Counted from the stretch's first letter, positions 13,713 through 63,133 are shown. The stretch: DNA of 64,000 nt from Vulcanimicrobiota bacterium (GCA_050250895.1 JBFWNU010000001.1:2150210-2214209), one strand, 5' to 3'. The notes: generated from the sequence alone by a model not told the origin. Numbers and translations: made by a program.

Positions 13713-13715
13713 CTC

Positions 13716-13943
13716 TTACGAGGCGGAATAGGTGCAGCCGCAGCTGTCGCAGCCGCCATCACAGCCGTCGGTGCCCGGACCAGCGTTGACCGCCAGGGTT
13801 TGGCGGATATCCAGTTCTCGCATGGCGGGGGTGATCCAGGGCTTTTTGCTATCGGCTGCGTCCATCTTCGCAAGTTCTTCGAAGGTGCTTAGCCTCCTTC
13901 TGGGGTTGACCGCTTGGATTGGCAAAGATACCATGCCGTCCAT
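13716..13943 (-). CDS. RiPP precursor peptide (leader + Cys/Ser/Thr/Asp-rich C-terminal core ...GTDGCDGGCDSCGCTYSAS)
   Basis: Small ORF immediately 5' of, and co-oriented with, the YcaO-SagB operon. C-terminal 19 residues contain 4 Cys, 4 Ser/Thr and 3 Asp in Gly-rich spacing, then stop. An alternative in-frame start at 13865 (MDAADSKKPWITPAMRELDIRQTLAVNAGPG...) gives a 49-aa peptide and avoids overlap with the divergent kinase gene. Confidence 0.6.
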   Translation of the reverse strand: MDGMVSLPIQAVNPRRRLSTFEELAKMDAADSKKPWITPAMRELDIRQTLAVNAGPGTDGCDGGCDSCGCTYSAS

Positions 13944-14796
13944 GGCCAGTCGCTACCGCGCCTTCGAACTCGAAATCACCTCTGAATTCCCCCTTCCAGC
14001 CGCGCCCGGCAGTGGCGACCTCGAGGCGGACGTAACCATCGTGGCGGGCCGGGTGCCCGGGAGTCTGAGGTTTCCGTCGGACACTGGTTTGTTATTTCAG
14101 GCGGCTCCCGATGAATTCTTGCTGTCGGTCGCGGGCATTGCCCGTTACTATGTCGAGGCGGGTCATCAGATCACCGTCGAGCCGGCCGCGGGCGCCAAAG
14201 CCGACGCGGTCGAGGTTTTTCTCTCGGGCTCCGCCATGGGGGCCCTATTGCATCAGCGCGGCCTGCTGGCCTTGCATGCCTCGGCGGTCGCCCTGAGAGA
14301 TATGGCCGTCGTGTTCGCTGGACCCTCGGGGGCCGGCAAATCGACCCTGGTGAGCACCCTGATAGGGCGTGGCTACGAGATCCTTTGTGACGATATCTGT
14401 GTCCTTCGCCAGGACCTGGTGTTGCCGGGTTATACCCGCCTGAGGCTCTGGAAAGATAGCCTGGAGGGATTGGGCCTCCAACCCGGGCGACGGATCCGCG
14501 AGGGTATCGAGAAGTTCGAGTTCGACCACTCGGGTCGCGCCGGCTCGCTGCCCTGTCGGCAACTGTTTTTGCTTGGCTCAGGAGAAGCCGTCATCGAGCC
14601 GGGCAGCCGTCTCCAGCATCTTATTCGCAACACCTATCGGCGCCGCTATTTGCGGGGTCTGGGCCGGCAGGAGCAACACTTTCAGGCCTGCGCCCGGCTG
14701 GCCGGTCGGCTGCCCATGGCCTGGCTCGAGCGCGGCCGCGTGTTCGGACAGCTGCCCGGGCTGCTGGAGGAATGGACGGGTGCGGCCAGGGGATGA
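13933..14796 (+). CDS. HprK C-terminal-domain-like P-loop serine kinase (RiPP-associated HPr kinase homologue)
   Basis: Walker A GPSGAGKST embedded in AVALRDMAVVFAGPSGAGKSTLVSTLIGRGYEILCDD, as in the HPr kinase/phosphorylase C-domain. The annotated ORF starts at 13732; the start is chosen at the internal Met 13933, divergent from the precursor. Confidence 0.6.
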   Translation: MPSMASRYRAFELEITSEFPLPAAPGSGDLEADVTIVAGRVPGSLRFPSDTGLLFQAAPDEFLLSVAGIARYYVEAGHQITVEPAAGAKADAVEVFLSGSAMGALLHQRGLLALHASAVALRDMAVVFAGPSGAGKSTLVSTLIGRGYEILCDDICVLRQDLVLPGYTRLRLWKDSLEGLGLQPGRRIREGIEKFEFDHSGRAGSLPCRQLFLLGSGEAVIEPGSRLQHLIRNTYRRRYLRGLGRQEQHFQACARLAGRLPMAWLERGRVFGQLPGLLEEWTGAARG

Positions 14797-15632
14797 GGCG
14801 GCTGGTCTGGCTGGCGTCTTACCCGAAGTCGGGAAACACCTGGTTTCGAGCCTTCCTGCGGGCCCTGTTCAGCGGCTCGGTCACTCTTAACGCGCTGGGC
14901 TTCGAGCACTCGGGACGGCGTCGCGACTATGACGAGCTACTGGGCATCGAGACGGCTTATCTTCACGATCATGAACTCGAGCTGCTGCGGCCGGAGGTCT
15001 ACCGGGCCAAAGCGCGCGAGTGCCCGCACCCGGCCCTGGTGGTCAAGACCCACGAGGGCTACCGCAAGCTCGGCGACGGCGGTTGCTTGTTTCCTCCCGA
15101 GTGTACTCGGGGAGTGGTCTATCTGGCCCGCAATCCTCTGGACGTGGCGGTGTCTTACGCCTTTCATCTGGAAGAGGGCGACTTCGATCAGGCTATCGCC
15201 AAGATGGGCAGCCAGCAGTCCTGGGGTATGGCTCGCGACCGCTACAGCCATCAGACCAGCCAGTTGCTGCCGGACTGGAGCACCCACGTCTCGGGCTGGC
15301 TCGACAATCACGAATTGCCGGTGCATCTGGTTCGGTATGAAGCACTGCTCGCGCAACCCGAGGCGACCTTCGCCGAGGCCCTGGCCTTTCTCGGGCTGGA
15401 GTACTCGCCGGAGCAGGTATCCCAGGCCGTCGAGTTGAGCAGCTTCGAGCGCTTGCGTGAGCAGGAGCAGCGACAGGGCTTCTGGGAGAAAATGCGAGTC
15501 GGGGTCGAGTTCTTTCGGCGCGGCCAGGCGGGCCAATGGCGTCAACACTTGAGTCCTGAGCAGAGGGACAGGGTGTTGTCCCAGCACCACAACGTGATGG
15601 CCAGACTGGGCTATCTTCCGGAGGGTGACTAG
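14772..15632 (+). CDS. PAPS-dependent sulfotransferase family protein
   Basis: 5'-phosphosulfate binding loop YPKSGNTW, followed by the RNPLDVAVSY 3'-phosphate-binding region. The alternative start at ~14793 forms an ATGA overlap with the kinase stop. Confidence 0.75.
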   Translation: MDGCGQGMRRLVWLASYPKSGNTWFRAFLRALFSGSVTLNALGFEHSGRRRDYDELLGIETAYLHDHELELLRPEVYRAKARECPHPALVVKTHEGYRKLGDGGCLFPPECTRGVVYLARNPLDVAVSYAFHLEEGDFDQAIAKMGSQQSWGMARDRYSHQTSQLLPDWSTHVSGWLDNHELPVHLVRYEALLAQPEATFAEALAFLGLEYSPEQVSQAVELSSFERLREQEQRQGFWEKMRVGVEFFRRGQAGQWRQHLSPEQRDRVLSQHHNVMARLGYLPEGD

Positions 15633-15939
15633 CCAAAGAATCGAATCACTCCCCATGGGTTTGGGTAGGGACGCCATTTTGGTGCGACATCGTCACGTGG
15701 TCTCGACCGAGCTACCGGATGGAGAGGCGGCTCTGATGGACATGCAGAGCGGGACCTACTTTCATCTCAACAGTGTGGCTAGCAGGCTGTGGCAGCTGAT
15801 CGCCGAGCCGATCTCACTGGCTCAGGTTTTGACCGCTCTCGAGGATGAGTTCGAAGTCGAAGCGGACCGCTGCCACGACGAGGTGGTCAGCCTGGTGACG
15901 CAGTGGCTCGAGCGTGGCTTGAGCCAGGTCGTCGCGTGA
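15625..15939 (+). CDS. PqqD-family protein (stand-alone RiPP recognition element, lasso-peptide B1-like)
   Basis: ~100 aa. Pattern LMDMQSGTYFHLNSVASRLWQLI...VLTALEDEFEV...VVSLVTQWLERGL typical of PqqD/RRE proteins. Overlaps neighbours on both sides (operon). Confidence 0.75.
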   Translation: MTSQRIESLPMGLGRDAILVRHRHVVSTELPDGEAALMDMQSGTYFHLNSVASRLWQLIAEPISLAQVLTALEDEFEVEADRCHDEVVSLVTQWLERGLSQVVA

Positions 15940-17687
15940 CCCTGGCTGGCTCTTCGGGTAGCCACGGAGTCTATCAGCTGGAATGGCCCGTCACCCCGTG
16001 GTGCCGGGACCGGGTCAGTTTGGTGGAGGGGCTCGAAAGCCGGGGGCTTGCGGTGGGGGGTCACGTGCGTCTGGACTATGGCAAAGAGCTGCAGGCTCGA
16101 CTGGGGCTGGCCGAGGGGACGTCGGCGGCCGAACTGGTGCTGGCCGCCTGGCGAACGCGGGGGCCCGATTGCCTGACGATGCTCTTTGGAGAATTCGCCT
16201 TTGCCGTCTATGACGGCGAGGCCCTCTGGCTGGTTCAATCCCCGTTCGTGCGCTGGCCAATCTACTACACCGAGACTGCCGAGGGCCTGGCCTTTCATTC
16301 CAGCGCCCGCGCCCTGCACCGCCTGCTGGACCGAGCACCTCGACTGCACGAGCGAGCCCTGGCCGCCTGGGCAATTCGGCAGCGTCTGGTGGAACCCAGC
16401 GATACCTTTTTCGAAGGGGTTTCGCGGGTCGAGCCGGCTGGATTGGTGAAGGTGGTCGAGGGGCGGGTGGTGAGCCGCCATTGCTGGTGGAAGCCAGTCT
16501 GGAGTCCGGCCCCGGCCGGTCGCGACCTGGCCGAGCTGGCTGCCCACCTCACCGATCAGGCCGTTCGCTCGCGGTTGGGCAGTCGACCGGTCGGGTGCTA
16601 TCTGAGCGGAGGCCTGGACTCGAGCACTCTGACGGCCCTGGCCTGCCGGGCGCTAGGGCAGCAGGGGCGCCGCCTGATAGCCTTCTCTTCGGTCTTGCCG
16701 CCCGGATACGCCGGCCCGGAGCGCGACGAGCGAGAGCCGATCGGCGTGATGGCTCGGCATTTCGAACTGGAGGTAGTCGAAGTGGTGCCCACTCGGGGTC
16801 CGACCTGCGACCTGCCGGGCCACACCGAGCTGGCCGAATCCCCCTACCTATTCCCCAAGCAATATGTCTTCGCGGCGATGCTCGAAGCGGCCCGCCGACG
16901 CGGCCTGGCCACCATTCTCGATGGCGGCTTCGGAGAGTTGACCCTCAGCCACGATGCGCCGACGGCCTTTGCTTATCTGGCTCGTCGGGGTCGCTGGCGC
17001 GAGCTGGCCGGATTGGTCCAGGCCTGGGCGCCGCGGGCCGGGCTGCCCTGGTGGAGAGTATGGTTCGCGACGGTGCTCAGGCCGCTTCTTCCAACGCGCC
17101 GAGTTCCGGCGCCCTGGCTGCCTCTGCAGGCCGACTTTGTGGCCCGCCAGGGTCTTCGCCCTCGGTTTGAAAGGCCCCGCGCCCAGGGGTGGTTGCCACC
17201 GATGGAAGGGCTGACATCGGTCCTGACCGCGGTAGGAAGCAGCGCCCTGCCGTTCTATGACCGCCATTTCGGGGTCGAGGTGCACAAGCCGTTTCTCGAC
17301 CGTCGCCTGATCGAGTTCTGCCTGACGCTCGACCCGGCCGACTTCTGGCTCGACGGCTGGCGGCGGGGGCTGGTGCGCCAAGCCATGCGCGACATCCTGC
17401 CGCGGGCCATCGTCGAGCGGACCGATCGGGGCGCTTTCGCGCCCGACTTCTTTGCGCGCTTTCGCCAGGGAGCTCCGGCCTTGCGAGCCGAGTTTGGGTC
17501 TCAGGGGCCCACCGATCTGGCCGCCCACTACTTCGACCTGGAAAGCCTGAGAAAGCTGCTTGACCAGCTCACCAGCCGTCCCGCCAGCGAGAAGTCACCC
17601 CAGGGAGCCCAGGCCAAGCAGGTTCTGCTGCGCAGCCTGGGGGGCGTCCGCTTTCTACGAAGTCTTCACTCCCAACCCGTCCAGTGA
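15903..17687 (+). CDS. asparagine synthetase (AsnB)-like PP-loop ATP-pyrophosphatase (lasso-cyclase / amidotransferase-like)
   Basis: PP-loop VGCYLSGGLDSST. N-terminal Ntn-glutaminase-like fold (GEFAFAVYDGEALWL) lacks the catalytic N-terminal Cys, as in lasso-peptide lactam synthetases. 594 aa. Confidence 0.8.
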   Translation: MARAWLEPGRRVTLAGSSGSHGVYQLEWPVTPWCRDRVSLVEGLESRGLAVGGHVRLDYGKELQARLGLAEGTSAAELVLAAWRTRGPDCLTMLFGEFAFAVYDGEALWLVQSPFVRWPIYYTETAEGLAFHSSARALHRLLDRAPRLHERALAAWAIRQRLVEPSDTFFEGVSRVEPAGLVKVVEGRVVSRHCWWKPVWSPAPAGRDLAELAAHLTDQAVRSRLGSRPVGCYLSGGLDSSTLTALACRALGQQGRRLIAFSSVLPPGYAGPERDEREPIGVMARHFELEVVEVVPTRGPTCDLPGHTELAESPYLFPKQYVFAAMLEAARRRGLATILDGGFGELTLSHDAPTAFAYLARRGRWRELAGLVQAWAPRAGLPWWRVWFATVLRPLLPTRRVPAPWLPLQADFVARQGLRPRFERPRAQGWLPPMEGLTSVLTAVGSSALPFYDRHFGVEVHKPFLDRRLIEFCLTLDPADFWLDGWRRGLVRQAMRDILPRAIVERTDRGAFAPDFFARFRQGAPALRAEFGSQGPTDLAAHYFDLESLRKLLDQLTSRPASEKSPQGAQAKQVLLRSLGGVRFLRSLHSQPVQ

Positions 17688-47171: not shown

Positions 47172-48344
47172 CTAGAGATGGGTGGCGACGACGCTGCCGC
47201 CGACGAAGGTGCCGATGGTGCCCAGCAAGTTGGTCAGCACGATGACCATTAGAATGCGGGCTACCCGATTGGTCCACAGGCCTTTGAGGCTCACCAGATC
47301 GTCGCCGATCGATTCAAAGTCGGCCACCCGGGGCTTGCGGATCGAGGCCTCGACCAAACCGGCCACCCAGCCGCCGGCGATGGTGGGGTTGAGACTGGTG
47401 AAAGGAGAGGCCACGAAAGCCGCCAGGATCGTCAGGGGGTGGGCTCCGGCCAGGGCCGAACCGGCCGCCCCAAAGCCGGCATTGATGAGAAACCAGGCCT
47501 TGAACATCTCCCAGCTGGTTTCGGCTCCGCCGTGCACAAAACCGTAGACGATCATCGCCAGTACGATGATAGGGATGAGCCAGGCCAGGGCGCGACTGGT
47601 CTTGCTGGGGGCCGGCAACTCGTCGAGGGGGTCGGTGTCGATGGTCTCGCCCAGCCACTTCTTGATGCCCGGAACGTGACCGGCGCCCACGATGGCAACC
47701 ACTCGTTGGCCGGGCGATGCTTGGATGCGAGCGGCCAGGTATTGATCCCGCTCGTCAATGAGGGCCTCGCGGACTTCGGGCAGCTTTTCGGAGAACTCGC
47801 GCATGGTCTCTTCGAGCACGTCCGAGGTCTTGAGGCGCTCGATCTCTTCGGCGTCGAGCTCTTCGTCACCGAAGAGGCTGCCGATGAGGGTGGCCATCAC
47901 CTTGATCATCGAGAAGAAGCGCAGCTTCGCCCAGGTTCGCCGCAGGGTGATGCGGACTTCGCGGTCGGCCATCACGATAGGCACGCCCAGCTCTTCGGCC
48001 ACCGAAACGGCCCGCATCATCTCTTCCCCCGGTTTGACCCCCAGCTGGTCGCCGATTCGGCGCTGAAAGCCCGAGAGCATCAGCTGGGCCAGCAGCAGGT
48101 GGGCCTTGCCCTGGCGGATGACCTCGACCAGGTCGGTGTTCTTCCAGCGGTCCGGGTCGCGCAGCGACTGAAGGCGCGGCTCGCACAGCTCGACGGCTAC
48201 GGCGTCGGGGGTGACCTCGCGGATGACCTCTTCGGCCAGCTCCGCACTGGCCAGGCTGACATGGGCGGTGCCGACGAGGTAGATCTCGCGTCCGTCGAGC
48301 TTGATCAGGTCGACGTTGTCCTTGTGCTGGATGACTTCTTTCAC
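47172..48344 (-). CDS. TraB/GumN-family protein with C-terminal TM helices
   Basis: IYLVGTAHVS motif and overall TraB-family layout. Hydrophobic C-terminal third. Confidence 0.7.
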   Translation of the reverse strand: MKEVIQHKDNVDLIKLDGREIYLVGTAHVSLASAELAEEVIREVTPDAVAVELCEPRLQSLRDPDRWKNTDLVEVIRQGKAHLLLAQLMLSGFQRRIGDQLGVKPGEEMMRAVSVAEELGVPIVMADREVRITLRRTWAKLRFFSMIKVMATLIGSLFGDEELDAEEIERLKTSDVLEETMREFSEKLPEVREALIDERDQYLAARIQASPGQRVVAIVGAGHVPGIKKWLGETIDTDPLDELPAPSKTSRALAWLIPIIVLAMIVYGFVHGGAETSWEMFKAWFLINAGFGAAGSALAGAHPLTILAAFVASPFTSLNPTIAGGWVAGLVEASIRKPRVADFESIGDDLVSLKGLWTNRVARILMVIVLTNLLGTIGTFVGGSVVATHL

Positions 48345-50933: not shown

Positions 50934-51665
50934 GTGCCAACGCGCAAGCTCGGTCCCTTCAGTCACACCCTCAAGGCGGTGATGCCCATGGCCATTTATG
51001 GCCACGGCGGCGTGCCGCTGCTGGTCTTTCCCACCGCCACCTCCGATTTCGAAGAGTTCGAGCGGATGGGGATGGTCGAGGCTCTGGCGGCCCCCCTCGA
51101 GCAAGGGCTGGTGCGGCTCTATTGTATCGACAGCATCAACGGCCAGAGCTGGTCCCATCCCGACCTGCCCCTCGACGAGAAGGCGCGGCGACAGACCCTC
51201 TACGATGCTTACGTCACGCGCGAAGTGGTGCCCCTCATCTGGCACGACAATCGAGCTCGGGTGCCCATCGCTACCACCGGAGCGAGTTTCGGAGCCTATC
51301 ACGCGGCCAACACCCTGCTCAAGCACCCCGAGTATTTTCGCTGGTGCATCTGCATGAGCGGTGTCTACGACATGCGTCCCGAGCACGGCGAAGAGCCCCG
51401 CGAGGCGGCCTATCGCGACCACAATCCCGGCTCCTATCTGCCCCGGCTAAGTCATGGCCGACGAACCCGCTTGCGGAGTTGCTCGATCGAACTCATTTGC
51501 GGGCGGGGGGCCTGGGAACGAGTCCACTGGTCCCGCGATTTTTCGCGGCTGTTGTGGACCTGCGGCATTCCCCATCACTTCGACCTGTGGGGGCGCGACA
51601 GCGCCCACGATTGGCCGTGGTGGCATCAGCAGCTGGCGGGAGCCGTGCAGAGGCTCTTCGGATGA
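50934..51665 (+). CDS. putative esterase (esterase D / enterochelin-esterase-like fold)
   Basis: GxSxG nucleophile (TGASFGAYHAANT) and overall 'putative esterase' family arrangement. Confidence 0.6.
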   Translation: MPTRKLGPFSHTLKAVMPMAIYGHGGVPLLVFPTATSDFEEFERMGMVEALAAPLEQGLVRLYCIDSINGQSWSHPDLPLDEKARRQTLYDAYVTREVVPLIWHDNRARVPIATTGASFGAYHAANTLLKHPEYFRWCICMSGVYDMRPEHGEEPREAAYRDHNPGSYLPRLSHGRRTRLRSCSIELICGRGAWERVHWSRDFSRLLWTCGIPHHFDLWGRDSAHDWPWWHQQLAGAVQRLFG

Positions 51666-52240
51666 CCGAGAAAGAACTCAAATTCATCGTGCCTGATGAG
51701 CCCGCCTATCAACGGCTGCTGGCTTTGCTCGGAGAACCCCAGGCCAGGATGCAGCAAGTAAACCGTTACTTCGATACTCCCGATGGGCGTGTGACCGCGG
51801 GTTTTGCGGCTTTGCGAGAGCGAACCGAGTCAGGTCGGCGGGTATTGACCTTCAAAGCCGGCAAACGCCAGCAGGACGGCTACTTCGAGGCCCTCGAGTT
51901 CGAGTGCGAACTCGACGACCAGCTCTTTCCCGACCAGTGTTGGGGGCTGGCCCCGATGGTCGAATTCACCAGCCGGTTCGGCGAGGGGCCGCTGGTCGAG
52001 CAGGGAGCCACCGAGAACCTGCGATTGTGTTTCAGGCTCTCGGGGGGCTGGCTGCTCGAGCTTGACCGCACCGTTTTTCCTGGAGGTAGGGTCGAGTTCG
52101 AGGCCGAGGTCGAGACCGAGGATCCCGAGGCGACTCGGGCGGAACTGGCTACCCTGTTTGCTCAGGCGCAAGTGGCTCTGACGCCTCAGACGAAGACGAA
52201 ATATGCTCGTTTTCTCGAGGCGGTCCAAAGGCGTCCTTGA
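51662..52240 (+). CDS. CYTH-domain protein (triphosphate tunnel metalloenzyme)
   Basis: N-terminal EKELKFIV (ExExK) signature. ATGA overlap with the esterase stop. The ORF in the track begins further upstream (51122) in the same frame but overlaps the esterase. Confidence 0.6.
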   Translation: MTEKELKFIVPDEPAYQRLLALLGEPQARMQQVNRYFDTPDGRVTAGFAALRERTESGRRVLTFKAGKRQQDGYFEALEFECELDDQLFPDQCWGLAPMVEFTSRFGEGPLVEQGATENLRLCFRLSGGWLLELDRTVFPGGRVEFEAEVETEDPEATRAELATLFAQAQVALTPQTKTKYARFLEAVQRRP

Positions 52241-53490: not shown

Positions 53491-53754
53491 ATGCTTGTGA
53501 TCAGAAATAGCCAGCAACTTGCCGCCGCCGAGCCGGCCGTCGAACACGATCGGATGCTCGTGACCAGCGCGGCCGTTCCCTCGCAGAGCGAGCATCGCCA
53601 TCGCCACCAGGAAGAGCGCCGCTCAGGCCGGTGGGAATGCGACGAAGAAGGCTATGACGAAGTGATTTTCAGCGAAGCCATCGAGGAAGAGCCCTATTCG
53701 GACTATGACGTCCAGGGGATCATCGGCAACCTGACTCAGGCCCTCAAGCTCTGA
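53491..53754 (+). CDS. possible small acidic protein (87 aa)
   Basis: In-frame Met with GGAGAGAGA upstream. Locally AT-richer codons, His/Glu-rich. It is the only part of the long ORF 52747..53754 not antisense to another gene. Confidence 0.3.
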   Translation: MLVIRNSQQLAAAEPAVEHDRMLVTSAAVPSQSEHRHRHQEERRSGRWECDEEGYDEVIFSEAIEEEPYSDYDVQGIIGNLTQALKL

Positions 53755-54596
53755 AAGAAGCCCTCGCCGGCCAGCTTGATTTTCTCTAGCTTGTTGAGAC
53801 TGGCCCGTTCTTTAAGCACCCGCGGACCCATCTGGGCAATGCGCTCGAGCAGGCCGCGATAGATTCGGGTCATGGCCACCAGTGAGGGGCGGCTGACCGA
53901 GTCGACCCTTTCCACCAGCGGCTCGGACTTTTCGTAGTAACCTCGCGCCCTCTCGACTTCGAAAGCGAGCAGCCGGGCGAAGCCCGGGCCGGGGTTGCCG
54001 GCCAACAGGTCGGCAGGCTTGACTTCGAAGCGTTCCAGATCTTCCAGAGGCAGATAGATGCGCCCCCGCTCGGCGTCCTCGCTGATGTCGCGCAGGATGT
54101 TGGTCATCTGAAAGGCGATGCCACGGGCTTCGGCCTCGGCAAAAGCCTCATCCGAACCATCGAAACCGAAGATGTGGATGCAGACCAGCCCGACGGTCGA
54201 GGCTACCTGATAGCAGTAGCGATAGAGTTCCTCGAAGGTTTGATAGCGTGAGACCGACAGGTCCGCCTCGGCCCCGTCAATGAGCTCGCGAAAATAGCGG
54301 GTGGGGATCGCGTAGCGCTGTACCGTTTCGTGAAAGGCCGGCAGGATGGGGCTCGAGTCCGCTTGTTGGCCCGGCTCGACCGAGGCCCGCCAGCGCGTAA
54401 GCAGCTCGTCGCGGTCGCCCACGATCTCGTCGTCGGACACATCGTCGCAGTAACGAAAGAAGGCATAGACGGCGCAAAGCGCGTCCTGGCGCTGGCTGGG
54501 TAGCAGGCGGATGCCGTAGTAGAAGTTTTTGGCTCGCTCTTTGGTGACTTGGCGACAGTGCCGATACGAGTCGGCCAGGCTAATCATGGCGGGCAA
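53736..54596 (-). CDS. squalene/phytoene synthase family protein (HpnC/HpnD-type)
   Basis: Asp-rich motifs (YCDDVSDD...; NILRDISEDAERGRIYLP) and YCYQVASTVG region characteristic of the trans-isoprenyl diphosphate head-to-head synthases. Confidence 0.8.
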   Translation of the reverse strand: MPAMISLADSYRHCRQVTKERAKNFYYGIRLLPSQRQDALCAVYAFFRYCDDVSDDEIVGDRDELLTRWRASVEPGQQADSSPILPAFHETVQRYAIPTRYFRELIDGAEADLSVSRYQTFEELYRYCYQVASTVGLVCIHIFGFDGSDEAFAEAEARGIAFQMTNILRDISEDAERGRIYLPLEDLERFEVKPADLLAGNPGPGFARLLAFEVERARGYYEKSEPLVERVDSVSRPSLVAMTRIYRGLLERIAQMGPRVLKERASLNKLEKIKLAGEGFFQSLRA

Positions 54597-54679
54597 AGCT
54601 TCTCGTTTGGGCTCTCAACTCCTGTGAAAGCCAAAAGGGCCACCCGTTTGGGTGGCCCGGCAAACCAGATAGTTCGAAA

Positions 54680-55057
54680 TCAAGCGCCGATGCGGTTTTC
54701 CATGACCTGCATGGATTCCATGTTGACGCGAATCTCTTGAGTCTGTTCTTGTGCGTAGGTGAAGAGCGTGGCTACGCGGCGGTTGCGGTCGATGACCAAA
54801 CGCTGGCCGATAGACGTATTGCGCTCTTCGCCCGGCTGGTTGCCGAGCACGTAAGCGCGCAGGTCGGCCTGGTCGAGTTCGAGATCGGGGGCCAGGAGCC
54901 AACCGTTGCGAAGAATATGTTTGGGCTGCATGACGTATTTCATGAAGCGGGGTGAGGTAACCTCGGTGAGGGCGCCGAAGAGGCGGGCTTCCCGCAAGCG
55001 GGTTGCCAATCGGGGGTGGACTTGGCCGGACGGCGCCTCGTGCATGACTGTATTCAT
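54680..55057 (-). CDS. hypothetical protein
   Basis: 125-aa ORF between the synthase gene and hpnA; no motifs. Confidence 0.3.
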   Translation of the reverse strand: MNTVMHEAPSGQVHPRLATRLREARLFGALTEVTSPRFMKYVMQPKHILRNGWLLAPDLELDQADLRAYVLGNQPGEERNTSIGQRLVIDRNRRVATLFTYAQEQTQEIRVNMESMQVMENRIGA

Positions 55058-55158
55058 TGTATTTGTGTAACCTTTCTAGCCGTCTCCGACTGAGGTTCGT
55101 TCTCCAGTTGTTGAGATTATTAAATATTCAGCTGAAAAAAGGCTGAAAGCCTGGGTAT

Positions 55159-56235
55159 GTGCGTTCCTCTCGGCCATTCCTGGTTGCGAGAGGAACTAGC
55201 CCACTCGGGCGGAAACGGTTTGCCTGTTTTAGGGAGTTCCTTTTGTCAGGCACTGTTCTCGTAACCGGTGGGGCCGGGTTCGTAGGTCACCATCTTGTTA
55301 ACAAACTACTAAACCGGGGCGATAGGGTTCGGGTTATGGTGCGAGCCAGCACGGATACCCGGCTGTTGGACGGACTCGAGGTCGAACTCTGCCACGGAGA
55401 TCTCACCGACCACGAATCGCTTCGTCAGGCCGTGCGCGGCTGTAGGCGCGTCTTTCATTGTGCCGCCGACTATCGTCTCTGGACCCGCGACCCCAGCCAG
55501 CTCTACGTCGCCAACGTGCAGGGCACCCATCAGCTTTTCGAAGCTTGCCTGGCCCAGGGGGTCGAGAAGGTGGTCTACACTTCGTCGGTGGCCACCATCG
55601 GCATTCCGGCCGACGGCACTCCGGGCGACGAAGAGACCAGGGTCGGCCGCCAACACATGATCGGCCACTACAAACGTTCGAAGTATGACGCCGAGCAGGT
55701 CGCCTTTCACTTTGCCCGGCGGGGGCTGCCCATCGTGATCGTCAACCCCTCGACGCCGGTGGGGCCCGGCGATGCCAAGCCCACTGCCACCGGGCGCATC
55801 ATTACCGACTTTCTGACCGGCCGTATGCCGGCCTACGTGGATACCGGGCTCAACCTGGTGGCGGTCGAGGATGTGGCCGAAGGTCACCTGCTGGCCGAGC
55901 AGCGCGGAGTGAACGGCCGCCATTACATCCTGGGCAACCAGAACCTGAGCCTGCGCCAGATTCTCGAGTTGCTGGGTGAGCTGACCGGCCGGGCCGCGCC
56001 CCGGGTCCGCATTCCTCAGCTGGTGGCCGAGCTGATCGGACACCTCGACACCTTTGTGCGGGGTAAGCTCTTTGGGGTCGAGCCCCGGGTGCCGATCGAG
56101 GGGGTCAAGATGGCCCGCAAGAAGATGTACTTCGATTCGGCCAGAGCCGCCACCGAACTGGGTTTCGAGCCCACTCCGGTGCGGGAGGCGCTGGCCAGGG
56201 CGGTGGACTGGTTCGGGAGTCAGGGCTATGTCTAG
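55159..56235 (+). CDS. hpnA: hopanoid-associated NAD-dependent sugar epimerase/dehydratase (HpnA-like)
   Basis: VLVTGGAGFVGHHL NAD loop and YKRSK catalytic motif. Sits immediately upstream of hpnG/hpnI homologues. The true start is probably nearer 55240. Confidence 0.7.
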   Translation: MRSSRPFLVARGTSPLGRKRFACFREFLLSGTVLVTGGAGFVGHHLVNKLLNRGDRVRVMVRASTDTRLLDGLEVELCHGDLTDHESLRQAVRGCRRVFHCAADYRLWTRDPSQLYVANVQGTHQLFEACLAQGVEKVVYTSSVATIGIPADGTPGDEETRVGRQHMIGHYKRSKYDAEQVAFHFARRGLPIVIVNPSTPVGPGDAKPTATGRIITDFLTGRMPAYVDTGLNLVAVEDVAEGHLLAEQRGVNGRHYILGNQNLSLRQILELLGELTGRAAPRVRIPQLVAELIGHLDTFVRGKLFGVEPRVPIEGVKMARKKMYFDSARAATELGFEPTPVREALARAVDWFGSQGYV

Positions 56236-56911
56236 CCCTCGGGTCGGGATCTTGGCCCCGATGCCGGAAGAGGCCGCGGGTCTGGTGCGCGTGCTGCGCT
56301 TGCGGCCCGAAGGCAGCCACCACGGCGTGCCCTTCTATCGCAGCCAGACGGTCAGTCTGGTCTGCTCGGGTCTGGGTCAAGAGCGGGCCCAGCACGCCAT
56401 GCACTGGCTGCAGAAGGTGGACCGTCCCCGCAGCATCCTGATTGCCGGGGTGGCCGGCGGCCTTGATCCCGAACTGGTGACGGGCGACCTGTTGTTGGCC
56501 GAGGGCGGCGAGCCCGCCTGGCTGGCGGCAGTGGCCGGCCGTCTGCCCCGGGCGCGGGTGGGCAAGCTGCTGACCTCGGGGCGGGTCATCGTCAAAGCGC
56601 GCAACAAGGCAGCCGTCTTCGCCGATACGGGAGCCCTGGCGGTGGACATGGAGACGTGGGCCGCGGCCGGCGTGGCCAGGGTTCCCTGGTTGGGGCTGCG
56701 GGCCATCAGCGATACCGCCGGCCAGGACCTGCCACTCGATTTCAACGACTATTTCGATGACAAGGGCCACTCGCGCTATGCCGCCGTGGCTCTCGAGGTG
56801 GCACGCCGCCCGGCCTTGCTGCCCGGGCTGTTGCGCCTGGCCGGCAACTCGGTCAAGGCCGTCAAGAGGCTGGGTGAGGCGGTTCGGGTGGCTCTCGAAG
56901 AGGCTCCGTGA
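56228..56911 (+). CDS. hpnG: hopanoid-associated phosphorylase (HpnG-like; PNP/MTA-nucleosidase fold)
   Basis: PNP_UDP_1-type pattern (VGILAPMPEE..., IAGVAGGLD, LAVDMETWAAA). ATG overlaps the hpnA stop (ATGTCTAG). Confidence 0.7.
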   Translation: MSSPRVGILAPMPEEAAGLVRVLRLRPEGSHHGVPFYRSQTVSLVCSGLGQERAQHAMHWLQKVDRPRSILIAGVAGGLDPELVTGDLLLAEGGEPAWLAAVAGRLPRARVGKLLTSGRVIVKARNKAAVFADTGALAVDMETWAAAGVARVPWLGLRAISDTAGQDLPLDFNDYFDDKGHSRYAAVALEVARRPALLPGLLRLAGNSVKAVKRLGEAVRVALEEAP

Positions 56912-57990
56912 GCACCCTCTGGTTGATTTTATTGCTGGTGGCGGCTGGCTACCAGCTGGCCTGTGCCTGGCTGAGCCTTGGTTTTCGAGGCGAGCTGCGC
57001 CGATTTGCCGACAAAGGCTTTCGCCCCGGGGTTTCGCTGCTCAAGCCGGTGCGAGGCTGGAGCGAGCGGACTGCTCGCAATCTGGCCACTTTCGAGGAGC
57101 TGACCTATGAGGGGCCGGTGGAGACCGTGTTCACGGCCGCCCGGCGGGGCGATCCGGCCGTGGCCGCCCTGGGCAGCCGGGTGGTCGACGGCACGCCTTC
57201 GCCTGGGCACAACCGCAAGGTCGCCGGTTTGGTGGCCGGGCTCGAGCGCACTCGTCACGATTTGCTGGTCGTCTCGGATGCTGATATCCGCGTGCCTCCG
57301 GATTATCTCGAACGCGTCTGTGCCGCTTTCGAGGACGACCGGGTGGGACTGGTGACCAGCCTCTATCGTGCTGGTCCGGGGCAGAGCCTGGGGACGGCCC
57401 TGGAGGCTCTCTGCATCGCCGATTTCTCGGCCTCGGTGCTGGTGGCCCGCCGCACCGAAGGCCTGGCCTTCGCGCTGGGGGCCACCATGGCCGTGCGGCG
57501 CCAGGCCCTCGAGCAGATTGGGGGCTTTGCCGCCCTGGAGGACTTTCTGGCCGACGACTTTCAGTTGGGCCACCAGGTGGCCCGGGCCGGCTGGCAGGTG
57601 CGCCTGGCTCCCACCGTGGTCGAGACCGACCTTGGCGAGGTCGACCTCCAGGGGGCCCTGTCTCACCAGTTGCGCTGGATGGTGACCTCGAGGGTGTCGC
57701 GCCCCGGGGGGCACGCCGCCTTCATCGTCACCCAGGGCCTGCTGTGGGCCCTGTTGTTGGTGGCCTCCACGGGTGCCTGGTGGACCCTGGCCGCCTGGTG
57801 GGGTTGGCGGTGGCTGACCACGGCGGTGGTCTGGCAGGTGCTGGGGGCTCGTTGCCGCTGGTGGCTATTGCCAGTCAAGGAACTGGCCTATCTGTGCCTG
57901 TGGGCGGCCTCGCTGGCAACTGATACCGTCCGCTGGGGTGAAGACCGCTTTCGCATCGACCGTCAGGGGAAGATGACTCCTGTATGCTAG
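56908..57990 (+). CDS. hpnI: glycosyltransferase family 2 (ceramide-glucosyltransferase-like; HpnI-like)
   Basis: N-terminal TM, DxD-type region (LLVVSDADIRV), QxxRW-like motif (HQLRWMVTSR), C-terminal TM helices. Overlaps the hpnG stop by 4 nt. Confidence 0.7.
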   Translation: MSTLWLILLLVAAGYQLACAWLSLGFRGELRRFADKGFRPGVSLLKPVRGWSERTARNLATFEELTYEGPVETVFTAARRGDPAVAALGSRVVDGTPSPGHNRKVAGLVAGLERTRHDLLVVSDADIRVPPDYLERVCAAFEDDRVGLVTSLYRAGPGQSLGTALEALCIADFSASVLVARRTEGLAFALGATMAVRRQALEQIGGFAALEDFLADDFQLGHQVARAGWQVRLAPTVVETDLGEVDLQGALSHQLRWMVTSRVSRPGGHAAFIVTQGLLWALLLVASTGAWWTLAAWWGWRWLTTAVVWQVLGARCRWWLLPVKELAYLCLWAASLATDTVRWGEDRFRIDRQGKMTPVC

Positions 57991-60089
57991 CCTTGCTGAT
58001 GCTACTTTGCGCCATGCCACTCGAGCCGACGGCCCTGGACGCCCTGGTCGAACAAGCCATCCAGCAGGGTCAGACGGCCGGGGCTGTCTTGCTGGTCGGC
58101 CGGGGCCGCGAGGTTCTCTACCATAAGGCTTATGGCTTTCGCCAGCTTGCCCCCGAGCGCTTGCCCATGACCACCGACACCCTCTTCGATGTGGCCTCTT
58201 TGACCAAACCAATGGCCACCGGGCTGGCCGTGAACTGGCTGTTCGAAAAGGGCAAACTCTCGCCCCAGGACCGGGTGGCCGACTATCTGCCCCAGGTCGA
58301 CCCGCGGCTAACGGTAGAGCAGCTTCTGATCCATCGCGCTGGCTTTGCCCCCGATCCCCCACTCGAGGCTGGCTGGGACGAGATCCTCGCGAGCCAACCT
58401 ATCCATCCACCGGGCCAGGAGTTTCTCTACAGCGACATCGGCTATCTCATCCTGGGCAAACTGGTCGAGAAGGTCGACGGGCGACCGCTGGACCGCCTTT
58501 GTGCCGAGGAGTTCTACACTCCCCTCGAGATGGTCGACACCGGTTTCAATCCGGCCCCGCGCCCGCGGGTAGCGGCCAACGAGGGGCCCCTCAGCGGTCG
58601 GGTGCACGACCCTCGGGCCGCCCGGCTGGGCGGAGTCGCGGGCCATGCGGGGCTGTTTTCGACCACCAGGGACACCTCTCGCCTGGCGGTGATGCTGCTC
58701 GAGGGTGGAGCCGGCCTGCTAGCACCCGAGACGGTCCAGGCCATGACGGCCAATCACCAGGGGCGCAGCTACGGGTTCGATGTCGACACCAGTTTCTCGA
58801 CTGCCCGTGGCGATCGCTTTGCGGCCGGATCCTCCTACGGGCACACCGGCTTCACCGGCACCAGCCTGTGGATCGACCCGGCTAGCGGCATCTATGTCAT
58901 CCTCTTCACCAACCGGCTCCATCCCGACGGGAAAGGCTCGGTGGTCGAGTTGCGCCGCCAGGTGGCCACGGCTGTGGCCGACCAGTTGCTGGGGCCGCCG
59001 GTAAAGTTGGGGGTCGATCGCCTGGTCGAGCAAGACTTCGCCCCCCTGCGCGGTCATCGGGTGGGCCTGGTGACCAATCACACCGGCCGCGACAGTCGAG
59101 GCCGACGAACGGTCGATCTATTGGCCCAGGCCGAAGGGGTCGAACTGGTCTGTCTGTTTAGCCCCGAACACGGCCTGCAGGGCAATCGGGACGAAAAGAT
59201 CGGCCATTCGGTCGATCAGACCACCGGTTTGCCGATCTACAGCCTCTACGGGGAAGACCGCCGCCCTCGGCCCGAGTGGCTGGCTCAAGTCGACACCGTG
59301 GTTTTCGACATCCAGGATGCGGGCTGCCGGTTCTATACCTACATCTCGACCATGAAAGCGGTGCTCGAGACCGCCCCCCGGGTGGTCGTGCTAGATCGTC
59401 CCAATCCGCTCGGGGGTCAGCTGGTCGACGGCTGGTTGGCCGAAGAATTCGACTTCATCGCTTGCGCCCCCATCCCCCTGGTCCACGGCATGACGGTGGG
59501 GGAGTTGGCTCGGCTCTTCAACCAGTCGGCCGGCACTCAGCTCGAGGTGGTCGCCATGCAGGGCTGGCGCCGCTCGATGAGCTTCGACCAGACCGGAGTG
59601 ACCTGGATCGACCCGTCTCCCAACTTGCGAAGCACCACCGCCTGTTATCTCTATCCGATGGTCGGGTTGCTAGAATGGGCCCATCTGTCGGTGGGCCGAG
59701 GGACCGACTCTCCTTTCCAGCGCTTTGGGGCCCCATGGATCACCGACCAGCGCCAGCTGGCCTGGCGCCTCAATCAGCTGGGCTTGCCTGGACTACGGTT
59801 CGTCCCCATCCGGTTTACGCCCCAGGCATCGGTCTTCGCCGGCCAGGAGTGCGGCGGAGTCGAGGTCGTGCTCTGCGACCGCCAGGTCTTGCGACCGGCC
59901 CTGGCCGGCCTCCAGGTGGCCCGACTCTTGGCCGAACTCTATCCCGACCACTTCCAACCAGAGAAGTTGAGCCGGCACATCGCCAACCCGGCCGTGCTGG
60001 CTTCTATCCAGGCTAGCCCCGACCCGGCCCTGTGGCAGCCGAGCCTGGAAGAGTTTTGCCGACGCCGCCAGCAAGTCTTGTTGTACTAG
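57984..60089 (+). CDS. fusion protein: class-C-type serine beta-lactamase/transpeptidase fold + DUF1343 (NamZ-like exo-muramidase) domain
   Basis: N-terminal SxxK (FDVASLTKPMA), YSD (FLYSDIGY) and HTG (YGHTGFTGTS) motifs. The C-terminal half (VGLVTNHTGRD...VVFDIQDAGCRFYTYISTM...) matches the DUF1343 pattern. 701 aa. Overlaps the hpnI stop. Confidence 0.75.
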   Translation: MLALLMLLCAMPLEPTALDALVEQAIQQGQTAGAVLLVGRGREVLYHKAYGFRQLAPERLPMTTDTLFDVASLTKPMATGLAVNWLFEKGKLSPQDRVADYLPQVDPRLTVEQLLIHRAGFAPDPPLEAGWDEILASQPIHPPGQEFLYSDIGYLILGKLVEKVDGRPLDRLCAEEFYTPLEMVDTGFNPAPRPRVAANEGPLSGRVHDPRAARLGGVAGHAGLFSTTRDTSRLAVMLLEGGAGLLAPETVQAMTANHQGRSYGFDVDTSFSTARGDRFAAGSSYGHTGFTGTSLWIDPASGIYVILFTNRLHPDGKGSVVELRRQVATAVADQLLGPPVKLGVDRLVEQDFAPLRGHRVGLVTNHTGRDSRGRRTVDLLAQAEGVELVCLFSPEHGLQGNRDEKIGHSVDQTTGLPIYSLYGEDRRPRPEWLAQVDTVVFDIQDAGCRFYTYISTMKAVLETAPRVVVLDRPNPLGGQLVDGWLAEEFDFIACAPIPLVHGMTVGELARLFNQSAGTQLEVVAMQGWRRSMSFDQTGVTWIDPSPNLRSTTACYLYPMVGLLEWAHLSVGRGTDSPFQRFGAPWITDQRQLAWRLNQLGLPGLRFVPIRFTPQASVFAGQECGGVEVVLCDRQVLRPALAGLQVARLLAELYPDHFQPEKLSRHIANPAVLASIQASPDPALWQPSLEEFCRRRQQVLLY

Positions 60090-60153
60090 AAGGATGGGGG
60101 GCGTGGATACCCCGTGGTAGTCCTTTCCTCGGATGCCTTCTCTATGCTCAAGA

Positions 60154-60973
60154 CATGAGATACTGCGCGTTATTGGTAGCCGTGTTGCTGTTGGTCGGCT
60201 GTGGTCCCGACAAAGAACCAGAACAGGCCAGGGTCAGTCCGACTGCCCGTCCGGTGGTGCAGGTGACGGCCACTCCCAGCCCCCAGCCGGCCTCTGAGCC
60301 AGGACCGAGCTTTCGCGTCAGAACGATTTTTCCCGGGGCCAGCAACGTGACCTTCGATGTGACCATCAACGGCCGTCCGGCGGGCTCGTTCAACACCTCG
60401 GCCCAAAACGATATCACCCCGCTGGTGAGCGCTGGTGACAACTCGTTGGAGATCCGCTGGAAAGCCGACCCCGAGATGATGAGTGGGCGCAGTGTAGAGT
60501 TCTATTTCGAGCAACGGCCGTCGCCTGATGATGATTGGAACACTCTGGTCTCGCGCCAGGTGAACAAAGACACCGAAGCAGGCTCGCTGACCACTAGCTT
60601 TGTCTCGGGCGAAGTCGGGCTGACCCAGCCGGCCGTGGAGGTGGATCAGCCCCCGGCTGAACTGGCTGACCGCTTCACCGTCAAGGTCGAGCAGAGCAAG
60701 CTGTTGCCGGCCGACTTTACTCTGACCCTCAACGGTCAGCCGGTGGGGTCGTTCGCGGCTAACTCGGATCAAGACGTGACCCGCTTTATCCGACCGGGCG
60801 AGAATCGAGGGCGTTTGGTCTATGAGGCCAAAGGCCACATCCTGCCGAAAGGGGCCCAGACCAGGTTCGTGCTCGGCGTAGAGCGCGACGGCAAATGGTC
60901 CACCGTGGTGGCCCAGACCGTCGGCCAAGCGGACCCGGAAGGGCTCAAGGAGTTCGCCTTCCAGGCCGAATAG
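60154..60973 (+). CDS. hypothetical lipoprotein
   Basis: MRYCALLVAVLLLVGCGPD signal + lipobox. Start coordinate is approximate (±1-2 nt) because the upstream ORF extension is in frame. Confidence 0.5.
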
Positions 60974-61017
60974 GAAAAGCCCCGCTGGTGTCGGGGCTTC
61001 GTCTTTGGCTCGCTGCG

Positions 61018-61374
61018 CTACTTGATGCGGGCTGTGTGGTCTTCTTCGAGAATGACCTGGCTCGCTTCCAGCAGGTTGATCTCTTCGAACTCGAGGGCGT
61101 TGCCTTCGGAGTCTTCCACCCGGATGTCCCACAGTTCCGCCTCGCTGGCGCCGTCAAATTGGATGTTGACGGTGGCCCCGTTCTGGATCACCTTGCCCCC
61201 CAGCAGGTCCTCTTCCCAGTTATCGGTGCCGGAAGGGCTGACGTAGAGGGCGTAGATGTCGACGCCCGTGCGATTGAAGAGTTCGAAGTCTTGCTCGCCG
61301 GCGCGGGCCGTCTGGTGGAGCGAGCCGAGCAGGAGCGCGGTGAGTGCAATAATCCCTAGAACTGACTTTCTCAT
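61018..61374 (-). CDS. small secreted protein (118 aa)
   Basis: Signal peptide MRKSVLGIIALTALLLGSLHQTARA. Acidic mature part. AT-richer codon usage. Confidence 0.45.
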   Translation of the reverse strand: MRKSVLGIIALTALLLGSLHQTARAGEQDFELFNRTGVDIYALYVSPSGTDNWEEDLLGGKVIQNGATVNIQFDGASEAELWDIRVEDSEGNALEFEEINLLEASQVILEEDHTARIK

Positions 61375-61482
61375 CGTGAGTATTCCTCCCCATTTTATTG
61401 CCCGGAGAAAGTTCAGCCGGAAACGAGCACCATCCTCTCGGCCTTGTCGGGTTCGCCTGCTCGAGGAACGGGGGCCGGCGGC

Positions 61483-62130
61483 CTAGTCGCCCTGGCGCCG
61501 GACCCGGTGGAAATAGACCGTTTCACGACCCCAACTGAAGAGATACTCCTGCTGGCGCCATAGCTCGAGGTCGGGATGGAGGGTCTGCCAGCCGACGCTG
61601 ATCCAGCGCGTTCCTTCGGCCAGATCGTCCACGCAAGCGGCCAGATCCAGGCGGGTGTCCTCTTCAAAGACAGTCCCGGCCACATAGACACAGGTGACCT
61701 CCTCGAGCGGGGTGTCGGCGAAGTCCTGATGCCGAAAGCTCACCCCGTCCAGGCCCAGCCAGGCTACAATGCGGCGGGCCACCACCAGATAGCTGGCCAG
61801 CAGGTCGACTCCGATAGCCTGCGCGCCCGTGAGCAGATGGGCCATGAAGACCATCTTGCCGCGACCGCAGCCCAGATCGATAAAGACATCGTCTGGTCCC
61901 AGTTCGGCCTCCCGCAGGATCTCTTCGGCGGTGAACCAGGGAGTCTCGCCGTAGCGAAAGTCGCCAAAAGGGCGTTTGAGGGCCCGGGCTTGCAGATAAA
62001 TGTCGAGAGGCGCGAACCGGACCAGATAGTGGGTCCAGAACAGCGCCTCTACTTTCCAGAGTCGGGGGACTCGAAAGAGTGCTTTCCACTCGCGGGGCCC
62101 TAAAAACAGGACCTCGAGAGATTCCTTCAC
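61483..62130 (-). CDS. class I SAM-dependent methyltransferase
   Basis: Motif I VFIDLGCGRGKM and an acidic residue after beta-2 (GVDL). Confidence 0.6.
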   Translation of the reverse strand: MKESLEVLFLGPREWKALFRVPRLWKVEALFWTHYLVRFAPLDIYLQARALKRPFGDFRYGETPWFTAEEILREAELGPDDVFIDLGCGRGKMVFMAHLLTGAQAIGVDLLASYLVVARRIVAWLGLDGVSFRHQDFADTPLEEVTCVYVAGTVFEEDTRLDLAACVDDLAEGTRWISVGWQTLHPDLELWRQQEYLFSWGRETVYFHRVRRQGD

Positions 62131-62131
62131 T

Positions 62132-63133
62132 CTAGGCGGTCAGGTGCCAGGTGGCCAGCTGGGCCATACCCTTGAGGCTGCGCGAGGCCGCTTGCACGGC
62201 GCTATGCTCGAAGCCCGAGTGCATCTTGCAGTTGGCGCAACGACGGTCCTGGCGGGTTTCCCAATAATCCCAGTCCACCGAGTTCCAGAAGGTGTCGAAA
62301 TCGTCGTAGTATTTGTCGCCAATCAGATAGCAGGGTCCCTTCCATCCGTTGGGCGTGTAGTTGACCGTCGACCAGGGCGAGCACTTGAGTTCGATCAATC
62401 CGGCCGCGAAGTCGAGGAAAGCGGGCGTGGCCGTCAGTTTGTATTTGCTCGAGAGTTCGCGGATGCGCTTGAACTTCTCGTGAATCTGCTCCTGGGTCAG
62501 GAAGACGTCGGCTTTGACGCTCTCGTAGCTGTAGCCGGGCGAGATCAGGATGCCGTCGACATTGAAGCCGGTCAGGAAGTCGCAAAGTTCCTCCACCTCT
62601 TCGATGTCGGTCTCTTTGAAAACGGTGGTGTTGGTCAAGGTCAGATAGCCGCGCTCTTTGCATTCTTTAATCATGGCCACGGCCTTGTCGAAGACGCCGT
62701 CGCGAGCGCACACATAGTCGTGGGTCTTCTTCATTCCATCAAGGTGGACATTGACGAATAACTGCTTGTGCGGCTTGATGTTGGGAAAGAACTTCTTGTC
62801 GAGCATCAGGGCGTTGGTACACAGGATGATGTGCTTGCCCTGCTCGATCAGGCCTTCGATCAATTCTGGCAGTTCGGGGTAGATGGTCGGCTCGCCGCCG
62901 CAGACGGCCACGGTGGGCACTTCGGTGATGCGGGCGGCCTCGAGGCATTTCTCGACCGGGAGGCGATCCTTGAGCTTGCCGGTGTGGCGCTCGACCGCGC
63001 AACCGATACAGGCCAGGTTGCAGGTATAGAGCGGCTCCAACATTAGCACGGTGGGGTAGCGCTTGCGCCCTTTACGGCGCTGCTGCACCATGTGCTTAGC
63101 GTTGGACATTACAAAGTCGATGGGGAATCGCAT
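62132..63133 (-). CDS. hpnH: radical SAM adenosyl-hopene transferase (HpnH-like)
   Basis: CxxxCxxC radical-SAM cluster motif (YTCNLACIGCA) near the N-terminus and a Cys-rich C-terminal domain (CANCKMHSGFE) as in HpnH. Start set at the internal Met 63133. Confidence 0.75.
   Translation of the reverse strand: MRFPIDFVMSNAKHMVQQRRKGRKRYPTVLMLEPLYTCNLACIGCAVERHTGKLKDRLPVEKCLEAARITEVPTVAVCGGEPTIYPELPELIEGLIEQGKHIILCTNALMLDKKFFPNIKPHKQLFVNVHLDGMKKTHDYVCARDGVFDKAVAMIKECKERGYLTLTNTTVFKETDIEEVEELCDFLTGFNVDGILISPGYSYESVKADVFLTQEQIHEKFKRIRELSSKYKLTATPAFLDFAAGLIELKCSPWSTVNYTPNGWKGPCYLIGDKYYDDFDTFWNSVDWDYWETRQDRRCANCKMHSGFEHSAVQAASRSLKGMAQLATWHLTA

Follow-up and report, generated by a model that had tools for sequence, protein, structure and literature searches.

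Whether an enzyme of peptidoglycan recycling has been drawn into hopanoid metabolism is the question raised by a 64,000-nucleotide stretch of DNA from a Vulcanimicrobiota bacterium (GCA_050250895.1 JBFWNU010000001.1:2150210-2214209; hereafter referred to as the window), in which the start of a gene for a 701-aa fusion of a beta-lactamase-fold domain and a NamZ (DUF1343) domain overlaps the stop codon of the hopanoid side-chain gene hpnI. The original prediction described the locus as fragmented and suggested that the translational coupling might reflect hopanoid-peptidoglycan cross-talk or a non-canonical hopanoid head group. Based on the analyses presented here, we consider it probable that the locus represents an ordinary hopanoid side-chain cluster, which received a common peptidoglycan-recycling gene by a lineage-specific insertion, and that the functions of the two are not linked.

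Gene identities were assigned by listing open reading frames (ORFs) in combination with Pfam and NCBIfam hidden Markov model scans, which reproduced the predicted gene order, coordinates and strands, including the exact end of hpnH at position 63133 (Table 1). The assignments hold as well: HpnA and HpnH score above the curated cut-offs of their families, while the HpnG-, HpnI- and HpnD-like proteins have these families as their best matches at scores below the cut-off. In HpnH, both the Radical_SAM (PF04055) and the DUF3463 (PF11946) domain were matched, and the protein is 67-87% identical among the related loci described below and 63-87% identical to database proteins named HpnH by their sources. 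The hpnG-like gene, whose product shows the PNP_UDP_1 fold (PF01048, 79.5 bits against a threshold of 25.1), occupies a constant position between hpnA and hpnI among the relatives, and the match of the hpnI-like protein to TIGR03472 spans model positions 6-372 of 373, with its linkage to hpnA, hpnG and hpnH being kept among the relatives. For the synthase, HpnD ranked best at 248.9 bits (cut-off 278.6, not reached), followed by CrtB (208) and HpnC (177), and the gene is kept beside the cluster in the related loci L005, L007-L009 and L091/L092 with an identity of 55-71%. The genes hpnA and hpnG overlap by 8 nt, hpnG and hpnI share GTGA, and hpnI and the fusion gene share ATGCTAG. The true start of hpnA is the TTG at position 55243, which is preceded by AGGGAG and identical in the genome GCA_020431725.1 (L004), with a ratio of non-synonymous to synonymous substitution rates (dN/dS) of 0.05 between the two; a gene call of 299 aa in a Logan assembly of run SRR27751815 (L001 7323-8222, window 55336-56235) shortens the protein and loses the GxxGxxG NAD-binding motif.

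The cluster was compared by synteny and tblastn with seven related loci, which represent five distinct relatives. Database labels on these relatives are Ca. Eremiobacteraeota, Ca. Xenobia and "bacterium CPR1"; Vulcanimicrobiota is the validated name of Ca. Eremiobacterota/WPS-2 (PMC10927679). The identity of HpnH to the window protein amounts to 87% in L005, 81% in L007/L008, 82% in L009 and 67% in L091/L092. Common to the relatives is an order in which an esterase-CYTH pair is followed at some distance by the SQS_PSY gene and by hpnA-hpnG-hpnI, which converge on a methyltransferase gene and hpnH, and in every one of the seven loci hpnI and the methyltransferase gene meet directly. The fusion gene and the genes for a lipoprotein and a 118-aa secreted protein, which separate the two units in the window, gave no tblastn match in any of the seven loci. 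The only relative that shares hpnA-hpnG-hpnI-fusion is L004 (hpnI 82% and fusion 89% identical to the window), and the L001 assembly, which reaches 8 kb past the window end, shows 99.5-100% protein identity to the window. Among the fetched loci, the lipoprotein gave a tblastn match in L001 only, and so did the 118-aa secreted protein. The block of fusion, lipoprotein and secreted protein is specific to the lineage of the window, which bears out the prediction that the fusion is an insertion and restricts it to this lineage and one close relative. Most simply, a block of about 3.5 kb (57984-61482) would have been inserted once in an ancestor shared by the window genome and L004. We conclude that the locus is a conserved extended-hopanoid (C35 side-chain) cluster of a Xenobia-like clade within Eremiobacterota/Vulcanimicrobiota. 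A scan of genome contigs with HpnI gave two loci, one of which, in Thiobaca, contained a generic GT2 gene and was discarded.

The conserved neighbourhood is wider than the hpn genes, since the esterase-CYTH pair flanks the cluster in the window and in those relatives whose fetched flank extends far enough: both genes are present in L007/L008, L009 and L091/L092, and in L005 CYTH only was found. Beyond this pair, a TraB/GumN-family gene is located in the window, L007/L008 and L009.

The predicted overlap of the hpnI stop with the fusion start depends on the start codon chosen. The Logan gene call for the fusion, comprising 691 aa from Met11 (L001 10001-12076, window 58014-60089), would abolish it. 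This start is unlikely, as residue 11 is Phe in L004. In that genome, the fusion begins with a GTG within the hpnI stop (GTGA) at the equivalent junction, and the N-terminal peptide LLMLLCA-PLEP is conserved despite several synonymous changes. For the window fusion, the NCBI annotation gives 701 aa as well. From this we conclude that the upstream start is used and that the overlap is real and conserved in two genomes.

Within the fusion protein, the Beta-lactamase domain covers residues 18-318, followed by NamZ_N (360-551) and NamZ_C (555-701), and both NamZ matches exceed their Pfam gathering scores. The C-terminal half matches the DUF1343 structure PDB 4k05 with E=4e-74; DUF1343 is now known as NamZ, a GH171 exo-beta-N-acetylmuramidase (PMC8054146). 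For the N-terminal domain, the best NCBIfam match is PBP4B (NF002968) at 138.2 bits, which is far under the cut-off of 385 and thus not an equivalog-level assignment. In an alignment with 29 homologues, the catalytic motifs S72-L-T-K75 (SxxK), Y149 and H287-T-G289 all fall into invariant columns, and the residues invariant in the NamZ family are retained as well. The comparison with L004 yielded a dN/dS of 0.086 at a dS of about 0.85, and from this purifying selection we conclude that the fusion is a functional gene; together with the retained invariant residues, it rules out a pseudogene. The signal peptide is short: it has 12 hydrophobic residues and lacks both a charged n-region and an AxA site (window 57984-58022), whereas the homologues carry ordinary leaders of 20-60 residues. 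The shortening is common to the window and L004 and may date from the insertion.

Outside this lineage, the beta-lactamase/NamZ architecture is widespread, with at least 8000 matches, all at E<=1e-10, in Planctomycetes, Acidobacteria, Bacillota and Eremiobacterota. No hpn genes neighbour the fusion in L002 and L003, which contain its closest homologues beyond the lineage (61% identity), and 80 metagenome loci with the fusion (849 kb) gave no tblastn match to HpnH, HpnI, HpnG or the HpnD-like synthase (SQS_PSY), so that hpn linkage is lacking in a total of 82 other fusion-bearing loci. In a neighbour census, for which ORFs located up to 4 kb from the fusion gene in the 80 metagenome loci were clustered, the most frequent of the recurrent neighbours reported here was a MurQ etherase (TIGR00274 383.6 bits, cut-off 302) fused to a NagK-like kinase (26 of 80 loci), followed by a sodium/solute symporter (17 of 80), a GH3 C-terminal domain (11 of 80) and MurA (7 of 80). 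These recurrent neighbours are a gene set for the recycling of N-acetylmuramic acid (MurNAc) and peptidoglycan. The association with MurNAc genes was found for the fusion family and not for the window copy, which is flanked by hpnI and the lipoprotein gene. In L002 (5185-11573), the gene whose stop codon overlaps with the fusion start encodes a short-chain dehydrogenase, and genes for an amine-oxidase flavoprotein, a copper amine oxidase and a saccharopine dehydrogenase follow; it is another instance of the fusion within an unrelated operon. The amine-oxidase gene of L002 was not accepted as HpnE, as it sits among the copper amine oxidase and saccharopine dehydrogenase genes.

As judged from the respective families, HpnH would add an adenosyl group to hopene, yielding adenosylhopane, from which the HpnG-like enzyme would remove adenine to give ribosylhopane and subsequently bacteriohopanetetrol (BHT), to which HpnI would add N-acetylglucosamine. 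The hpnA gene, which is without an established role, and the HpnD-like prenyl synthase would accompany these side-chain genes. About 3.5 kb with three genes for predicted exported proteins would then have landed between the convergent hpnI and methyltransferase-hpnH units. In the fusion, the PBP4B/AmiE-type serine hydrolase domain is predicted to cleave off the stem peptide, whereas release of the terminal MurNAc is predicted for the GH171 NamZ domain. The cultured representative of the phylum has a diderm envelope in which the layer of peptidoglycan is thin (PMC9758169). The fusion and the lipoprotein gene are probably read from the hpnA-hpnG-hpnI transcript, and such a co-expression would be a by-product of the landing site, with no biochemical tie to hopanoids.

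The original prediction also pointed out that a cyclase, hpnE, hpnJ and hpnK are not in view. Indeed, neither the larger ORFs of the window nor the 8 kb that follow it contained a cyclase, HpnC, HpnE or RND-type gene. In none of the relatives was a cyclase found up to 10 kb from the cluster, and hpnK and hpnJ were found neither in the window locus nor in the loci of the relatives. A complete HpnC-HpnD-HpnE trio is likewise absent from the window, which contains one SQS_PSY gene and neither a second one nor an amine-oxidase-type gene. A 730-aa protein encoded next to hpnH in L001 was considered as a cyclase and rejected, since it has no Pfam match and no resemblance to cyclases. This protein (44% identical in L005) is encoded downstream of hpnH together with DUF4956, VTC domain and CotH-like proteins (L001 15232-20370); the set may be polyphosphate-related, and none of its members is a cyclase. 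Squalene-hopene cyclase (SHC) has been reported in WPS-2/Eremiobacterota (PMC7306690), and a survey encountered HpnG and HpnI domains exclusively in genomes with both SHC and HpnH (PMC12324291). Acidobacteria routinely keep their hopanoid genes in separate clusters, namely hpnCDE, ispA-shc-hpnH and hpnA-hpnG; genes are inserted into such clusters at times, and hpnI is often present in the absence of hpnK (PMC5462960). Therefore, a distant shc is the expected situation, and shc and the remaining genes for squalene synthesis are presumably located elsewhere in the genome. A fragmented locus, as described in the original prediction, is not unusual: split hopanoid clusters are known from Acidobacteria, among them an hpnA-hpnG cluster into which genes have been inserted (PMC5462960).

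Several observations weigh against an ordinary hopanoid cluster with a functionally unrelated insertion. HpnI, HpnG and HpnD, i.e. three of the five assignments, remain below the curated NCBIfam cut-offs, and no cyclase was located for the source genome in the regions covered, that is the 64-kb window, the 8 kb beyond it and the flanks of the relatives. Together with the single SQS_PSY gene and the lack of HpnC and HpnE, this would fit a genome without any cyclase, in which the radical S-adenosylmethionine (SAM) enzyme, the nucleosidase and the glycosyltransferase modify another isoprenoid or lipid. We regard this as improbable, given that the scores of HpnH and HpnA are far above the equivalog cut-offs, that HpnH closely resembles named HpnH proteins, that HpnG and HpnI domains co-occur with SHC and HpnH (PMC12324291), that SHC is present in the phylum (PMC7306690), and that shc commonly occupies a separate cluster (PMC5462960). 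It is extremely improbable that the junction of hpnI and the fusion is an artefact of assembly or binning. The source is a metagenome-assembled genome (MAG) and the block is missing in most relatives, but the junction is also present in the independent Logan assembly L001 and in the separate NCBI MAG L004, where protein identities are 82-94% and the overlapping start is conserved. Because the block is seen in three independent assemblies, we conclude that it is not an assembly artefact.

Also weighing against our reading are features of the fusion itself: its export and compartment are uncertain because the signal peptide is much shorter than those of the homologues, and the start/stop overlap with hpnI has been kept through a dS of about 0.85, which is compatible with selected co-expression. 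Both would suit a fusion that is co-translated with HpnI and was recruited for envelope cross-talk or for the chemistry of hopanoid head groups, the overlap of 4-7 nt being conserved in two genomes and the shortened signal peptide potentially reflecting a changed location. The substrates of such an enzyme would be the amino-sugar head groups of BHT, which it would trim, deacylate or transfer. It might replace HpnK, the deacetylase that is missing, or link the turnover of peptidoglycan to the synthesis of hopanoid glycolipids; in line with this, hpnK and hpnJ are lacking in the locus and in the loci of the relatives, and the product of HpnI bears N-acetylglucosamine, which is chemically near the substrates of NamZ. 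However, the five other distinct relatives keep the whole cluster without the fusion, none of the 82 other fusion loci shows hpn linkage, and the family is typically found with murQ, kinase, symporter, GH3 and murA genes. Moreover, the fusion has kept every residue that is invariant in its family and shows no sign of an altered specificity, and the homologues carry signal peptides, while the assembly of hopanoid side chains is cytoplasmic. Acidobacteria with hpnI commonly do without hpnK, too (PMC5462960). Because the fusion is missing in all other members of the clade and no such linkage exists elsewhere, we rate recruitment as very improbable although the overlap has been kept, and the cross-talk or non-canonical head group of the original prediction finds no support in a family that is very common and has its usual neighbours in peptidoglycan recycling. 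For the preferred reading, an ordinary side-chain cluster with an inserted recycling gene, this means that operon membership and a start/stop overlap can result from a lineage-specific insertion without a functional link. The locus documents hopanoid side-chain genes for Eremiobacterota/Vulcanimicrobiota, a phylum with hardly any cultured members, and is of little import for mechanism.

More useful leads than the fusion are two tiny, clade-restricted families, a DOT1-like methyltransferase encoded next to hpnH and a 125-aa protein encoded next to hpnA, which may be candidates for unrecognised hopanoid-associated functions. The methyltransferase gene starts 1 nt after the hpnH stop on the same strand and adjoins hpnH not only in the window but also in each of the seven related loci with hpnH. 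A search of 5.8 billion proteins gave no more than 46 clusters of this family at E<=1e-5, and the most distant homologue (L090, 39% identity) is not located near hpnH. The AlphaFold model (predicted local distance difference test, pLDDT, 93.7) has its best full-length PDB match in 9ne1, a bacterial DOT1L methyltransferase (TMq 0.76); aKMT was also among the best matches, which include small DOT1-like lysine methyltransferases, and isoprenoid C-methyltransferases appeared lower in the list. The structure search thus returned generic DOT1-like and class I matches only, with no clue to the substrate. The small protein beside hpnA is 86% identical in L005 and 53-56% identical in L007/L009 and, in L005, better conserved than the neighbouring hpn proteins with 53-71% (HpnH there 87%). 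It was detected beside hpnA in L005, L007/L008 and L009 and not in L091/L092, it has 25 representatives at E<=1e-3 among 1.84 billion proteins, and it gave no Pfam or NCBIfam match.

Table 1 Features of the hopanoid locus, its flanks and other parts of the window. Positions refer to the window unless a related locus (L number) is given; bit scores are from Pfam (PF) and NCBIfam (TIGR) models.
Feature	Position	Strand	Evidence or remark
HpnD-like synthase (SQS_PSY)	53736-54596	-	PF00494 256.9 bits
Small conserved hypothetical protein, 121-125 aa	54680-55057	-	Divergent from hpnA
hpnA, hopanoid-associated NAD-dependent epimerase/dehydratase	55243-56235	+	TIGR03466 455.6 bits, above cut-off of 367.65
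hpnG-like nucleoside phosphorylase/nucleosidase	56228-56911	+	TIGR03468 109.4 bits, best match, below cut-off of 187.1
hpnI-like GT21 glycosyltransferase	56908-57990	+	TIGR03472 293.5 bits, cut-off 310; PF13506 (Glyco_transf_21) 167.7 bits
Beta-lactamase-fold/NamZ fusion, 701 aa	57984-60089	+	PF00144 219.5, PF07075 238.5, PF20732 127.7 bits
Lipoprotein, lipobox LVGC, N-terminus MRYCALLVAVLLLVGC	60155-60973	+	Translation
GC-rich hairpin between convergent lipoprotein and 118-aa protein genes	60977-60999		-16.3 kcal/mol on both strands
Small secreted protein, 118 aa, signal peptide ends ARA	61018-61374	-	Translation
DOT1-like class I SAM methyltransferase	61483-62130	-	PF08123 43.3 bits
hpnH, radical SAM adenosyl-hopene transferase	62132-63133	-	TIGR03470 341.4 bits, above cut-off of 225
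Methyltransferase in relatives	L005 11064-11654; L007 11050-11634; L009 9268-9948; L091 10001-10648		
Esterase-CYTH pair	50934-52240 and 47172-48344 (with the TraB/GumN-family gene)		
Esterase-CYTH pair in relatives	L007 19246-21002; L009 16543-19069; L091 16342-17696		
ThcOx-like/nitroreductase protein	10436-11638	-	
YcaO cyclodehydratase	11622-13712	-	
Sulfotransferase	14772-15632	+	
Asparagine-synthase-like protein	15903-17687	+	

The two other genes of the inserted block, encoding the lipoprotein and the 118-aa secreted protein, gave no Pfam match. On the minus strand, the hairpin between them has a z of -3.4 and is followed by UUUUCC; it is likely a bidirectional terminator, and a simple terminator scan made no call there. 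A further, strong terminator-like hairpin (54658-54637) lies 3' of the small hypothetical gene. A promoter and terminator scan of the window did not rise above the shuffled expectation, and an Rfam scan of the window gave no match. Far from the hopanoid locus, at window positions 10436-17687, a YcaO cyclodehydratase gene adjoins a gene for a ThcOx-like/nitroreductase protein, with a sulfotransferase and an asparagine-synthase-like protein encoded nearby. This region looks like an azole-forming cluster of the type producing ribosomally synthesised and post-translationally modified peptides.

The nearest functional counterpart of the fusion is found in the murQ-murR-murP-amiE-nagZ-namZ operon of B. 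subtilis, where AmiE (a beta-lactamase-fold amidase), NagZ and NamZ, on which family GH171 was founded, act together to break down peptidoglycan from the non-reducing end (PMC8054146). As in this operon, NamZ_N and NamZ_C are paired in the window with a PBP4B/AmiE-type hydrolase, the homologues of the fusion are exported, and the neighbours of the family include murQ, GH3 and transporter genes. In contrast to B. subtilis, both enzymes form one polypeptide in the window, and the copy is located outside a MurNAc context, downstream of hpnI and with a shortened signal peptide. E. coli PBP4B (yfeW), which is encoded next to murQ-murP, is the best NCBIfam match of the N-terminal domain, whose SxxK, Tyr and HTG motifs are present in the fusion, but the score is far below the family cut-off and PBP4B is without a NamZ domain.

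For the hopanoid genes, the pathway of HpnH, HpnG and HpnI-HpnK-HpnJ known from Burkholderia cenocepacia, Rhodopseudomonas palustris and Zymomonas (PMC12324291) provides the comparison, with the window HpnH passing the cut-off and the HpnG- and HpnI-like proteins being best matches. The predicted products would be the same, i.e. adenosylhopane, ribosylhopane/BHT and N-acetylglucosaminyl-BHT. In contrast to this pathway, the neighbourhood in the window is without hpnK, hpnJ, hpnN and shc, and HpnG is strongly diverged (109 vs 187 bits). The closest likeness in gene arrangement is to the split clusters of Acidobacteria (A, hpnCDE; B, ispA-shc-hpnH; C, hpnA-hpnG plus a gene without known function; PMC5462960), in which hpnA and hpnG are adjacent as in the window, the cyclase and squalene genes reside in other clusters, as presumed for the window, genes are inserted at times, and hpnI occurs without hpnK. 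Unlike in Acidobacteria, hpnI follows hpnG in the window, hpnH is accompanied by the DOT1-like methyltransferase gene instead of shc, an HpnD-like gene is adjacent, and the inserted gene is a NamZ fusion.

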